This document shows positions 50,649 through 55,580 of a DNA stretch of 64,000 nucleotides, one piece after another; position 1 is the first letter of the stretch; every line of letters starts with the position of its first letter. The notes beneath the pieces are model-generated. The model ran no database searches. It had not been told where the DNA came from and saw only the letters and a program-made list of their open reading frames with translations. The position numbers were made by a program, and so were the translations under genes. Origin of the DNA: an uncultured delta proteobacterium (GTDB lineage: Bacteria; Desulfobacterota; WTBG01); NCBI GenBank assembly GCA_963793865.1, contig CAWCBP010000014.1, positions 96,001-160,000 of the forward strand. The letters are read 5' to 3'.

Positions 50649-52262
50649 ATGAGACAATCGAGCGCGGCGGAAGTGGAAGAACAGGAAACGGGCCGCGCGC
50701 TGAACAAGAAGAGGCTTGAAACCGCTGAGAGCATGGCGGCCCGCCAGCGGGACATCTCGGTGTCGGAATTTTTCGCCAAGAACCGCCACCTGCTGGGTTT
50801 TGATAATCCGCGCAAAGCGCTTCTCACGGCCATTAAAGAGGCGGTGGATAATTCACTGGATGCCTGCGAGGAAGCGGGCATATTGCCCGATATCCTTGTC
50901 AGCATCGAAGACCTCGGAAATGACCGTTTCCGCATCGCGGTGGAGGACAACGGCCCGGGTATTGTCAAGCGCCAGATTCCCAACATTTTCGGGAAGCTGC
51001 TCTATGGTTCGAAATTCCACTGCCTGAAGATGAGCCGGGGGCAGCAGGGGATCGGGATCAGCGCGGCCGGCATGTACGGGATGCTTACCACCGGCAAGCC
51101 GGTTGAAATCATCAGCCGCACCGATCCGTCAAAGCCCGCGCACCATTTTCTTCTGCAGATTGACACCAAGAAGAACAAGCCTGAAATCATCAGCGATAAA
51201 GAGGTGGAGTGGGAGCTTACGCACGGCACGCGCGTGGCCATCGAGCTGGAAGGCAAGCACACGCGGGGCAGGCAGTCGGTAGACGAGTATGTGCGCCAGA
51301 CCGTCATCGCCAATCCCCACCTCCGGGTTCGGTACCAGGAACCCTCGGGCGAGCTGATTACTTATGAGCGGTCCAGCGATCAGCGTCCCGGACACACCAG
51401 CGAGATTAAACCCCATCCCCATGGCGTTGAGATGGGCGTGCTCCAGACCATGCTTAAGGATACCAGGGCGCGCAACCTGGGAGGTTTTTTGCAGATGGAA
51501 TTTTCCAGGGTTTCGCAGCGGGTGGCGGAGGAAATTTGCGCCAATGCCGCTATTGCACCCTCGCTTTCACCCTCGCGCATGGGGCATCAGGAAGTGGAGA
51601 AACTGATGCAGGGGATTGCCAAAACCAAAATCATGAATCCGCCCACCAACTGTGTAGCCCCCATCGGCGAAGAGCAGTTGCAAAAGGGCCTGGAGTCGAC
51701 CATCCCGGCTGCTTTTTACACCTGTACCACCAGACCTCCGGCGGTGTACCGGGGAAATCCCTTCATCATTGAGGCGGCCCTTGCCTACGGCGGTGACGGC
51801 CAGGAAGCCGACGAGCCGGCCCGGGTGCTCAGGTTTGCCAACCGGGTGCCGTTGCTGTACCAGCAGGGCGGGTGCTGCGCCTACCAGTCGGTGCTGCAGA
51901 CAAACTGGCGACAGTATGGCTTGAACCAGCCTCGCGGTGCGCTTCCCGTGGGACCCCTCACTATTATCGTGCACATGGCCTCGGTCTGGGTCCCTTTCAC
52001 CAGCGAATCCAAGGAAGCCATTGCCGGATACCCGGAGATTGAGGAGCAGATTGTGCTCGCCCTGCAGGAATGCGGCCGCAGGTTAAAGCTGTTCCTTTCC
52101 AAGCGCAGGCGGGAAGCTGAAGCGCAGCGCAAGCTTGACTATCTTGAGATGTATCTTCCCCATATCGGAATCGGCCTGCGCGAACTGCTCAATTTGCCGG
52201 AGAAGGAAGAGAAGCAGCTGACGGATACGCTCAAGGAGCTGCTGGAGCGGCACCGGGGCTGA
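50649..52262 (+). CDS. top6B: DNA topoisomerase VI subunit B
   Basis: [71 protein letters not shown]. Confidence 0.95.
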
Positions 52263-52314
52263 ACTGCCCGGGCAATATACTTATTCAGAGGAAAGCAATC
52301 AGGCAATTCCGGGG

Positions 52315-53532
52315 ATGTACATGAATAAAAAGAGAGTAAGTCAGGGCAAGGAAAAACAAAAACCCGTGGCAGCCGCTAAAGCCATTAAGAGATCATCACC
52401 GCTTGACCTTTCACGTTCACCCGCCATGAAGGGGCTCATAGCGCAGGCACAGGATATACACAAGGATATCAAAAGCGGCCGCCGCCCGTCGCTGCGGGTG
52501 CCCATCCGCAGCCTGTCCAACGTTTCCTTTTCCAAGGATAAGGGCTTCTTCGCCATCGGCAAGAGGGTGAGCAAGCGGACCCTCTCCTACCAGACCATCA
52601 AGCCCTTTGCCCAGACCGTGCGGATGATGGCCTTTGCCAAGCACCTGATCGACACCAGCGACTTTGCTTCCAAACGTGAAGTCTACTACACCTCCAAGGG
52701 ATCAGCCAAGCGTGGCTCGGAAGCGGGTACGGCAGGATGGGGGCCGGCATCGTTTAAAGAGCAGCCGGAATCTGACACCATCATGGATGACATGGAGGCG
52801 ATGATTGGAGTAAACCGGGAGCAGCTCGGCTTTATTCCCGCCGAGCAGAACGGTTCGGTTGCAGGCGAGCTGATTGTTATCGATATCGACCCCGCCACGG
52901 GTAAAAAGATCGAAATTGACTGCACCGCCTTCGGCAGAGGGAGCTATTCCATTCCTTCGCGTGTGGAAGGCCTGGAGTTTCGCACCAAAGCCAAATTTAT
53001 ACTTGCGGTTGAGACCGCGGCGCTTTTCGAGCGCTTAAACGGTCACGCCTACTGGCGGGACGCAAAATGTATCATCGTGGCCATGGGCGGTGTTCCCACC
53101 CGGGCAAACCGGCGGTTTGTCCGGCTGCTGTCCGATTCCTGCAGGCTGCCGGTCTATGTTTTCACCGATGGTGACCCCTATGGTTACGGCAATATTTACC
53201 GCACCATGAAGGTGGGCTCCGGCAATGCGGCTCACATCAATGAGTTCTTCTGCGTGCCCCGGGCAAAGCTGATCGGTGTCACGCCCCAGGACATCGTGGA
53301 TTACAACCTGCCTACCCATCCCCTGGAAGACAAGGATAAGAAGCGCGCCCAGGATGCGATCAAAAATGATCCCTTCTTCAAGAACAACAAACAGTGGGTG
53401 CAGGCATTGCAGGAAATGGTCAAGATGGGCGTGCGCGTCGAGCAGCAGGCATTTGCCGCGCGCGGGCTCAATTACGTCATGGAGACCTACCTTCCCGAGA
53501 AGCTGGGCAATCCCTCCAAGATGCTTCCATAG
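52315..53532 (+). CDS. top6A: DNA topoisomerase VI subunit A (Spo11-like)
   Basis: SKREVYY catalytic Tyr, Q.ESD..MDD.E, TOPRIM AVE...FTDGDPYG, EQQAF. Confidence 0.95.
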   Translation: MYMNKKRVSQGKEKQKPVAAAKAIKRSSPLDLSRSPAMKGLIAQAQDIHKDIKSGRRPSLRVPIRSLSNVSFSKDKGFFAIGKRVSKRTLSYQTIKPFAQTVRMMAFAKHLIDTSDFASKREVYYTSKGSAKRGSEAGTAGWGPASFKEQPESDTIMDDMEAMIGVNREQLGFIPAEQNGSVAGELIVIDIDPATGKKIEIDCTAFGRGSYSIPSRVEGLEFRTKAKFILAVETAALFERLNGHAYWRDAKCIIVAMGGVPTRANRRFVRLLSDSCRLPVYVFTDGDPYGYGNIYRTMKVGSGNAAHINEFFCVPRAKLIGVTPQDIVDYNLPTHPLEDKDKKRAQDAIKNDPFFKNNKQWVQALQEMVKMGVRVEQQAFAARGLNYVMETYLPEKLGNPSKMLP

Positions 53533-53616: not shown

Positions 53617-53644
53617 TTGACATCAACTCAGTTTTTGGTAAATT
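53617..53644 (+). promoter_or_regulatory. Putative sigma70 promoter upstream of the RNA-repeat array
   Basis: TTGACA (53617-22), 16 bp, TG-G-TAAATT. Confidence 0.5.
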
Positions 53645-53704: not shown

Positions 53705-53790
53705 GGGTCTAGAAACTTTCGTTTCTAGAGGTTAAAGCTGTCGATAGTCGGGCCGCTATCTGAAAATTCAGAGGGCGTCCCTTTTCTTTT
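53705..53790 (+). ncRNA. Riboswitch-like structured RNA with terminator, copy 1 of 3
   Basis: GGG, hairpin TCTAGAAAC/GTTTCTAGA, GGTTAAA, GATAG-TCGGGCCG-CTATC, then terminator GGGCCGCTATCTGA/TCAGAGGGCGTCCC + TTTTCTTTT. Confidence 0.75.
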
Positions 53791-53877: not shown

Positions 53878-53964
53878 GGGTCTAGAAGCAATTGTTTCTA
53901 GAGGTTAAATGCTGTTGATAGCCGGGCCGCTATCTGAAAATTCAGAGGGCGTCCCTTTTCTTTT
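53878..53964 (+). ncRNA. Riboswitch-like structured RNA with terminator, copy 2 of 3
   Basis: Same architecture; first stem TCTAGAAGC/GTTTCTAGA keeps pairing through a G-U wobble; different loop (AATT). Confidence 0.75.
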
Positions 53965-54041: not shown

Positions 54042-54130
54042 GGGTCCAGAAACGGTTGTTTCTGGAGGTTAAATTCTGTTGATAGCCGGGCCGCTATCTG
54101 AAAATTCAGAGGGCGTCCCTTTTCTTTTTT
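54042..54130 (+). ncRNA. Riboswitch-like structured RNA with terminator, copy 3 of 3
   Basis: Same architecture; compensatory T-A to C-G change (TCCAGAAAC/GTTTCTGGA); loop GGTT. Confidence 0.75.
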
Positions 54131-54202
54131 CAGGAGTCAGATTCTGGGGACTTTATTAAGGTGTGTACCTCATGCATCAATTAATTATGAGGAGGAACAA
54201 GG

Positions 54203-54376
54203 ATGAAATCTTTTAAAGAAGTGATCTTAGGTCTTGTAATAGGTGGTGGTTTTATTTTGATCCTCGCTGGTATCGAAGCCTTCAATCTGGGGAACAAGTG
54301 GTATCCTGCATATTTCATAACTGGTGCTATCATTGCGGTGGGATTCCTTAAACTCTCAACAAAAGTTATCAAATAG
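54203..54376 (+). CDS. Small 2-TM membrane protein, 57 aa (absent from ORF track)
   Basis: GAGGAGG SD; MKSFKEVILGLVIGGGFILILAGIEAFNLGNKWYPAYFITGAIIAVGFLKLSTKVIK; paralog of next gene. Confidence 0.85.
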   Translation: MKSFKEVILGLVIGGGFILILAGIEAFNLGNKWYPAYFITGAIIAVGFLKLSTKVIK

Positions 54377-54425
54377 TAACAAGTAGCGAACATCAAACAT
54401 TCATTATTTGAAAGGAGAAACAAAG

Positions 54426-54620
54426 ATGAAGATTTTAAAAGATTGGATGTTAGGTATTTGCATTGGTGGTGGCATTGTATTGATTTTATTGGGTCTGCAA
54501 GCTGTAACCAGGGGAAATAAGTGGTGGCCTGCATATTTTATAGCCGGTGCTATCATTGCCGCAGGATTCATTAAAGTCGCGATCAATGATTATTTAAAGG
54601 AGAAAATAGGAGCACGATAG
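54426..54620 (+). CDS. Small 2-TM membrane protein, 64 aa
   Basis: AAGGAG SD; MKILKDWMLGICIGGGIVLILLGLQAVTRGNKWWPAYFIAGAIIAAGFIKVAINDYLKEKIGAR. Confidence 0.85.
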   Translation: MKILKDWMLGICIGGGIVLILLGLQAVTRGNKWWPAYFIAGAIIAAGFIKVAINDYLKEKIGAR

Positions 54621-54782
54621 ATTTTATCGTTGTTTGCCTATTTGCGGTTCTGTGTGGTATAATATCTCTTCAGCTCTTTACTGAAAGGGCTGTGGGGAGG
54701 CTTTGCCGTCTTGTCAGGAAGGTGACTTATGTGTGCGAGGAAACGGGGGTGCGTGCAGCACTACAATCGTCAGCCGGGAAGA

Positions 54783-55487
54783 ATGATTTTATATTTAATG
54801 ATGGCAGTCATTCTCGTGGTTATTTTTCAGAGCCCGGCAGGCGCCGGGGAAGGGGAGGTATATGACCCCGCGGTGATCGAGGCCTTCTACAGCAAAATCA
54901 TTCGCAATCCTATAGAGATTGATGGCGATCCATACAGGGTTCTGCAGGATGAAGACCTGATTGAGTACCCGGAAGAAGCAGTCTGCGCCATTCAATATGA
55001 AGATGACCGCATTCACTATGAAATTGCTACCTTCGATGACGAGGCCGCCGCTCAAGACAGCGGCTATATAGTGACGCACAAGGGGCATTGCGGTACCTGT
55101 TCCACCCTGCAGGATCTTGCCACCTATCTCTACCACCGGGATCTGACCACGCCGGTGAGGAGGTGCTCCGCGCTGGTGTGGTTCCCCGCCTGGAGCATGC
55201 ATTGCCTGGAGGAGCTGGGGTTCAGTTCGGAATGTGCGGAAACCTGGTATTACAACGCGAAGAATACGGCGCGCGAGTGCCTGTGGCCCTGCCTGGAATC
55301 CTGGATGCATAAAGAGCCCTTTAACAAGCCTGATGGCAGCCTGAACGACTGCCTTGCCTGCGATGAAGAGTGTTCAGGCCCGATTTTCAAGTATGTTGCC
55401 GGCCGCACGCGGCGGAACTCGGGCATCCGCTCTGAAATCGACAGGCCGGAGGACGAGGTGTATCCCATTGTGCATGATTATTATTGA
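54783..55487 (+). CDS. Secreted cysteine-rich hypothetical protein
   Basis: Signal peptide; THKGHCGTCSTLQDLATY...CAETWYYN...CLACDEECSGPIFKYVAGRTRRNSG. Confidence 0.8.
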   Translation: MILYLMMAVILVVIFQSPAGAGEGEVYDPAVIEAFYSKIIRNPIEIDGDPYRVLQDEDLIEYPEEAVCAIQYEDDRIHYEIATFDDEAAAQDSGYIVTHKGHCGTCSTLQDLATYLYHRDLTTPVRRCSALVWFPAWSMHCLEELGFSSECAETWYYNAKNTARECLWPCLESWMHKEPFNKPDGSLNDCLACDEECSGPIFKYVAGRTRRNSGIRSEIDRPEDEVYPIVHDYY

Positions 55488-55580
55488 TACTCCGCATTGG
55501 TAAGAGGAAAGTACTACCGTAAGGGCTGTGCTCTTTGCAAGCGCGGCCCTTGTTTTATTCTCGCAGGCTGACTTCCCGGG

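Follow-up and report, generated by a model that had tools for sequence, protein, structure and literature searches.

The window analyzed here is a stretch of 64,000 nucleotides from an uncultured delta proteobacterium (contig CAWCBP010000014.1, positions 96,001 to 160,000), and all features described below lie on its plus strand unless stated otherwise. Two small genes, A (54203..54376) and B (54426..54620), are found in tandem downstream from an array of three RNA elements and are flanked by the genes for topoisomerase VI and PEPCK in what appears to be a stable chromosomal position shared by the orthologues. The topoisomerase VI genes are located directly upstream (50649-53532), where subunit A was assigned by Pfam and the preceding 537-aa ORF presumably encodes subunit B. 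Gene A starts with ATG and encodes a 57-aa protein with the C-terminus ...KLSTKVIK, and its Shine-Dalgarno (SD) sequence AGGAGG (54190-54195) is placed 7 nt 5' of the start codon. Gene B encodes 64 residues from an ATG codon with KVAINDY in the C-terminal part, and it is preceded by the SD sequence AAGGAG (54412-54417) at a distance of 8 nt. The two proteins define the A-type and B-type referred to below. An initial annotation of the window had proposed both ORFs with strong SD sequences, a paralogous relationship with a conserved GNKWxPAY loop, and a position as the first genes after three switches, and all of this was borne out: A and B share 31 of 52 residues (60% identity, BLASTP E 3e-22), the GNKW(Y/W)PAY loop is common to both, and they are the first SD-bearing ORFs 3' of the three matches to the nhaA-I RNA.

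Comparison of the orthologues in the four genomes of the genus (Nei-Gojobori, six pairs for each gene) gave dN/dS values of 0.10-0.33 for A and 0.18-0.34 for B. Since the two frames are thus under purifying selection, A and B are taken to be true genes rather than ORFs that arose by chance, and the same values led us to reject a non-coding or leader-peptide nature for them. A 117-aa ORF on the minus strand (54181-54534) overlaps both of the selected plus-strand frames and was rejected, being without independent support.

All three RNA elements match the Rfam family nhaA-I (RF03057) in a scan of the whole window, with matches spanning model positions 1-55 and scores above the gathering score of 37 bits. 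Aptamer 1 (53705..53761) scores 48 bits, aptamer 2 (53878..53935) 42.6 bits and aptamer 3 (54042..54099) 44.7 bits, and together they are the only RF03057 copies in the 3.85-Mb genome, which is 98.6% complete. Each aptamer runs into a terminator. Terminator 1 (53750..53790) consists of a hairpin at 53750-53781 followed by UUUUCUUUU, appears in both the RNAfold MFE and centroid structures, and was also picked up in a pattern scan as a terminator-like site at 53770-53784 with a T-run. Terminator 2 (53924..53964; hairpin 53924-53955, fold z-score -3.1) and terminator 3 (54088..54130; hairpin 54088-54119, fold z-score -4.4) overlap aptamers 2 and 3 in the same way. In each unit the last 12 nt of the aptamer, forming its 3' arm, are at the same time part of the 5' half of the hairpin, and a U-run follows, so that aptamer and intrinsic terminator are mutually exclusive. 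The three units are direct repeats with spacings of 173 and 164 nt and with 120-135 identical bases among 168-172 aligned positions.

Approximately 60 nt upstream of aptamer 1 there is a promoter-like site (53617..53644) with TTGACA and TAAATT separated by 16 nt and a TG before the -10 box, promoter-like sites being here consensus matches only, with four found in the region against 3.3 expected in shuffled sequences. From the U-run of terminator 3 there are 72 nt to the ATG of gene A. The initial annotation had held that a separate promoter between 54130 and 54203 would speak against its linking of the array with the genes; none was seen in this interval with the consensus scan, whose matches are no commoner than in shuffled sequences. 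A 258-nt contig covers 54068-54325 with two differences and bridges terminator 3 into gene A, and it derives from a library labelled as metagenomic RNA-Seq that possibly contains DNA, so we gave it no weight in either direction.

The proposal of the initial annotation that the array and its genes could be an undescribed ion-sensing module did not hold for the RNA, which is a published motif. White et al. 2022 (Sci Rep) gave the name Na+-II to a terminator-bearing deltaproteobacterial variant of nhaA-I, and the Desulfobulbus propionicus representative, which precedes a gene annotated as hypothetical, was activated in vitro by Na+ but not by Li+ (PMC9646797). Tandem arrays are also in print: paired nhaA-I RNAs were noted by Weinberg et al. 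2017 (PMC5737381), and one triple array, located 5' of nhaD, was reported together with other tandem arrays in PMC9646797. According to the latter paper Na+-II is found upstream of genes of unknown function in Deltaproteobacteria, tabulated there as “[Hypothetical] various unknown, 171”. The RNA of the window shares with Na+-II the aptamer consensus, a terminator competing with the 3' arm of the aptamer, a delta-type host, and downstream genes belonging to no matched family, and it differs from the published triple array in that two small membrane proteins rather than nhaD follow (PMC9646797). By its sequence the array is accordingly a known RNA class in a known tandem arrangement; what is new here is the orphan two-helix family behind it. 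A pattern search for further arrays returned no record named Desulfobulbus propionicus.

One base deserves separate mention. Position 54 is C in the Na+ sensor and U in most nhaA-I RNAs, and a mutant with C changed to U responded to Li+, Na+ and NH4+ (PMC9646797). Judging from the construct in the supplement aligned to the consensus, position 54 would correspond to the base at the U.G closing pair of P2. At this place the window has the Rfam consensus U in aptamer 1 (53752) and C instead of U in aptamers 2 and 3 (53926 and 54090), and in the arrays of the three congeneric genomes we find C,C,C (G003), U,U,U (G002) and U,U (G001). This suggests either that the base is not decisive for selectivity in this scaffold or that the arrays mix specificities. 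Taken together with the response of the C-to-U mutant to three cations, the U/C pattern leads us to regard Na+ as the most likely common ligand of the arrays, and aptamer 1 may accept Li+ as well. On present evidence, then, the window RNA would fit the description of Na+-II in every tested feature except the U in aptamer 1.

The initial annotation had suggested checking whether homologues of A and B carry the same RNA upstream. By Rfam scans at least one nhaA-I aptamer directly precedes the family genes at 11 of the 13 loci with visible upstream DNA, the 11 being close kin and not independent samples: the window's own genome (G000), G001, G002, G003, the first copy in the more distant genome G029, and the metagenome contigs L102, L103, L104, L107, L109 and L110. 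Contigs L105, L106 and L108 begin 21 to 104 nt before their first family ORF and were left out of the count. The two aptamer-free exceptions are a third paralogue elsewhere in the window's genome (L006, see below) and a frameshifted second copy in G029 (L127). The number of aptamers varies: two in G001, three in G002, three in G003 (the third just below the cut-off at 36 bits), two at the first copy in G029 (one of them at 36.1 bits), two each in L102, L103 and L107, and one each in L104, L109 and L110.

The gene content behind the arrays varies as well. In L102 (1130-1240) and L104 (326-430) gene A has been cleanly deleted and gene B directly follows the last terminator; the B protein of L102, 97% identical to that of the window, is preceded by two aptamers, and that of L104 by one. 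It follows from these natural variants that a fixed heteromer of A and B is not required. In L106 (22-255) a single chimera-like gene is present, in which a sequence resembling the A-type N-terminus is joined to a B-type C-terminus. The operon is longer in G001-G003 and a number of contigs, where it continues into one or two genes for single-helix proteins of 34-55 aa with charged tails, and the first of these in the congeners encodes 52-53 residues and has a start codon overlapping the stop codon of B. Alignment with G001-G003 places a probable remnant of this third gene in the window at 54614..54865, where ACG replaces the ATG, 6 nt have been deleted and the downstream part has diverged, with the frame still open over about 83 codons. 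Further downstream, a 252-aa Cys-rich protein with a signal-like N-terminus is encoded at 54729..55487. Its gene has a promoter-like site of its own (54634-54663), is followed by a terminator-like hairpin (55519-55553), and is syntenic in L102, L103, L105 and L107, and it may be a further read-through output of the array. The protein has homologues in 739 clusters from several phyla, all named hypothetical and with no Pfam domain.

The initial annotation recognized no family for A and B, and the same result was obtained here: neither protein matches a Pfam or NCBIfam model at its cut-off, and the family gave no match at E<=0.05 against PHROGs and PADLOC. Among 1.84 billion cluster representatives, a full HMMER profile search returned only eight proteins at E<=0.001, all of 56-73 aa and none of them a longer or fused form, and a word-indexed search of 5.8 billion clusters returned nine family matches. 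A profile search of 61 related genomes found the pair in all three other genomes of the genus (G001, G002 and G003) and one distant homologue in G029, which belongs to another family of the same class, making five genomes including that of the window. In a phylum-wide sample of 401 genomes, clear family matches were present only in G000, G001 and G029; 11 further weak matches with E-values from 2.7e-4 to 9e-3, mostly inside long frames, were treated as noise. In a tree of 29 family members the A-types and B-types are split on one branch (support 83/96, recovered in 94% of bootstrap trees), so that the duplication predates the lineages sampled.

Searches for more distant relatives gave little. 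The best hit in PDB by sequence had an E-value of 0.15, Foldseek against PDB gave no match at E<=0.001 (matches to c-rings had E-values of about 4-6), and the best ESM Atlas score, 0.87, was to unnamed clusters. Several identities were considered and rejected: DUF6903 (ESM Atlas score 0.86) was not backed by hmmscan, SLATT_1 scored 15.6 bits against a cut-off of 41, and CyanoTRADDas_TM 13.8 bits against a cut-off of 24.3. The ATP synthase c-subunit (PF00137) is absent from the Pfam matches at E<=1, and neither helix of A or B contains a conserved D or E. In the published literature on nhaA-I and Na+-II riboswitches and on sodium-linked small membrane proteins, the A/B family is absent among the matches listed, and no micro-proteins are described there, among the same matches, as the output of this riboswitch. 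The searches support placing the two-helix membrane proteins A and B outside the described families.

The two transmembrane helices and the conserved loop between them, as the initial annotation had it, agree with an AlphaFold2 model of B based on an alignment of 15 sequences. It is a helical hairpin with helices at residues 2-28 and 34-62 (mean pLDDT 84.4, pTM 0.56). Lysine and arginine are concentrated at the termini, with five residues against one in the loop for A and six against two for B, and among 10 A-type and 12 B-type sequences the termini carry at least four such residues in 18 of 22 and three in the remaining four. This bias leads us to predict that A and B both have their N- and C-termini inside and the aromatic loop outside, and that the two proteins are parallel in the membrane with the same orientation. 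They do not show the opposite K/R bias of a dual-topology pair, which speaks against a paired channel or transporter of the Fluc/CrcB or SMR type. Helix 1 contains the motif G-x-x-x-G-G-G and helix 2 the motif G-A-I-I-A-x-G, and helix faces made of small residues in this way are a usual mark of closely packed helices. Across the 22 aligned sequences neither helix has a conserved charged residue; the glutamate in helix 1 of A (E25) is present in three of the 10 A-type sequences.

The third paralogue in the window's genome (G000:C8:500879-501049; L006 1501-1674) also has 57 residues, is more divergent with the loop sequence RNMTYPEY, and is not associated with a riboswitch. It is located 60 nt 3' of a Na_H_Exchanger gene (PF00999; 386-aa frame) paired with a Usp gene on the same strand, and no promoter or terminator match was found in the 60-nt gap. 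The enolase gene that follows is split into two ORFs (L006 1745-2383 and 2449-3027), which looks like the result of a frameshift. In G001-G003, which are 94, 87 and 73% complete, respectively, no copy of the third paralogue was found. In total the window's genome has three PF00999 antiporter genes and no match to NhaA (PF06965). A fourth nhaA-I aptamer with a terminator is present in G002 on the minus strand (L129, G002:C21:25000-27400), 5' of a gene for an MscS-like channel and, next in line, a GT20 trehalose-phosphate synthase gene, which ties this type of riboswitch to osmotic stress in the genus.

Small membrane proteins behind the same RNA are found beyond the genus. Matches to nhaA-I are present in 17 of 42 genomes of the same class, often in tandem, and rough ORF calling places a hydrophobic ORF of at most 80 aa no more than 700 nt downstream from 11 of 16 such arrays. 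With heuristic gene calls, the same measure gave 9 of 50 arrays when a wider pattern was searched and 5 of 63 in the control direction, and two more cases (L017 and L024) were found among arrays outside the survey pattern. No micro-protein behind the class arrays reaches a Pfam cut-off. Other outputs of the same RNA type are NhaA-like, NhaD-like and Kef-like transporters, substrate-binding proteins and small HTH proteins. In one bacterial class, then, the genes behind this RNA are mostly those of tiny membrane proteins, one of which forms a conserved two-helix family.

How would such a locus work? The RNA family and its terminators are shown directly, and so are the coding status of A and B, the modelled hairpin and the association of RNA and genes; the regulatory half of the model draws good support from the homology of the RNA to a riboswitch that has been tested. 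The probable start of transcription is close to 53650, and RNA polymerase would then have to pass three successive nhaA-I-type units, each of which would terminate transcription at low Na+, until a bound alkali cation stabilizes P2 and blocks formation of the terminator. Since the three read-through probabilities would multiply, the operon is expected to be tightly shut while cytoplasmic Na+ is low and to respond with a steep threshold. A and B, placed behind three Na+/Li+-sensing switches, are thus likely to be produced only as salt accumulates in the cell. The output would be two inner-membrane hairpins of 57 and 64 residues with cytoplasmic termini and the G-N-K-W-W/Y-P-A-Y loop facing outward, possibly abundant small subunits that pack through their glycine-rich helix faces into homo- or mixed oligomers.

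Ligand, induction, topology and cellular role are inferred from these elements, and for the last of these we lean, if only slightly, towards a salt-gated operon in which A and B, as membrane hairpins made in response to Na+, modulate a transporter or the permeability or potential of the membrane and do not transport ions themselves. A transporter modulator, possibly for cation stress, was also among the suggestions of the initial annotation and is plausible. They could temper Na+ stress by modulating a larger cation/proton antiporter, or alternatively lower cation entry or the membrane potential, as the unrelated Pmp3/RCI2 proteins do. Stoichiometric modulation appears to be the best fit because the hairpins are small and without ion-coordinating residues, the copy number is variable, and a stray paralogue lies beside an antiporter. 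A bolder version is that Na+ defence in these sulfate-reducer-like bacteria, which would be run by riboswitches, relies mainly on hairpins of this kind together with single-helix micro-proteins, with A and B as a new class, Pmp3-like but unrelated, that lowers Na+ entry or resets the membrane potential under control of a near-digital triple switch; this we regard as speculative and rather unlikely.

Other explanations for the pair were weighed against the modulator model. About as doubtful as the bolder version is a role of A and B as accessory subunits dedicated to a single CPA-type (PF00999) cation/proton antiporter, which is what the third paralogue directly after the PF00999 and Usp genes on the same strand would suggest. 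However, neither in G000-G003 nor in the metagenome contigs does a transporter gene adjoin the riboswitch-linked pair, the search of the three congeners (94, 87 and 73% complete) did not recover the third paralogue, and in other genera this place after the RNA is taken by unrelated micro-proteins. That the two proteins form a small cation channel or exporter by themselves, close to the hetero-oligomeric channel or transporter envisaged in the initial annotation, is improbable, although tandem paralogues gated by an alkali-cation riboswitch, with glycine-rich helices that could line a narrow pore, would be in line with it, and riboswitch-gated small ion channels exist, as fluoride riboswitches with Fluc/CrcB illustrate. 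The helices lack any conserved charged or strongly polar residue, E25 being a minority feature of the A-types, A is dispensable in L102 and L104, the two paralogues have the same predicted orientation unlike dual-topology pairs, and no channel or transporter family was matched, all of which count against a pore formed by the pair.

Even less probable is a membrane-damaging function, in which A and B, like a type I toxin or a holin, would depolarize the cell and halt growth under severe salt stress. Short hydrophobic proteins that are tightly repressed by three serial terminators could be of this kind, and the single-helix ORFs of the congeners, with their K/E-rich tails, resemble type I toxins in outline, but no antisense RNA or antitoxin is evident at the locus, no PHROGs or PADLOC family was matched, and stable chromosomal orthologues between topoisomerase VI and PEPCK genes with dN/dS values of 0.10-0.34 fit a housekeeping stress function better. 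The lowest probability is given to the view that A and B are expressed constitutively or from a promoter of their own and that the array controls other genes or none at all. The promoter scan has low sensitivity and may have missed a weak internal promoter, but the U-run of terminator 3 is just 72 nt away from the ATG of A, with no promoter-like match in this interval, and array and genes stay together at nearly all informative loci even as the number of aptamers varies from one to three and the number of genes varies too.

Returning to the modulator model, two groups of small membrane proteins invite comparison. KdpF, MgtS, MgtR and AcrZ are tiny single-helix inner-membrane modulators that are induced by ion stress and bind a partner transporter, mostly being encoded in or near its operon. 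A and B resemble them in being tiny inner-membrane proteins with a presumed induction by ion stress, but they have two helices and no partner gene adjoins the riboswitch-linked pair; no homology of A or B to any small transporter subunit was found. The Pmp3/RCI2 proteins are thought to affect membrane potential and cation homeostasis without being transporters (PMC7835403, PMC3278423). With the Pmp3/RCI2/YqaE family (PF01679) A and B have in common a length of around 55 residues, two helices, several paralogues and, presumably, salt induction (PMC7835403, PMC3278423). The two-helix hydrophobic form of 50-60 residues is apparent from the AlphaFold2 model and the segment table and is a likeness of form only. 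There is no sequence relationship, as PF01679 gave no match at E<=1 for A or B or in a six-frame search across the genome; furthermore, induction by a riboswitch is proposed here, and the GNKWxPAY loop is specific to the A/B family.

A riboswitch in front of a micro-protein gene is a rare direct clue to the function of the protein, because the ligand names the stress. The genes under control of Na+-II appear in the published account as various proteins of unknown function (PMC9646797), and the locus described here sharpens that point, making it a testable question how very small membrane proteins help cells to cope with sodium. The compact RNA controller could in addition be used as a steep Na+-responsive genetic switch.

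Two further groups of genes behind nhaA-I RNAs were observed in the course of the survey. A protein family of 129-196 aa is encoded behind nhaA-I arrays in several genera (L023, L036, L040, L080, L011 2651-3046 and L127 132-1434); all members share a domain of the form ...CGVTE..F.F.KG..G.EIGRI..., the longer copies (L023, L036, L040 and L127) have an N-terminal helix in addition, and the one member submitted to Pfam (L023) gave no match. Single nhaA-I aptamers with terminators were found 5' of genes for winged-helix proteins of 89-108 aa in L059, L063, L069, L072, L073, L081, L084 and L095, the hosts being Syntrophaceae-like MAGs and others labelled only as Thermodesulfobacteriota, Deltaproteobacteria or Proteobacteria. 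The protein of L072 matches HTH_24 (E 1.5e-6) and MarR_2, and these would be cases of a cation riboswitch controlling a transcription factor.
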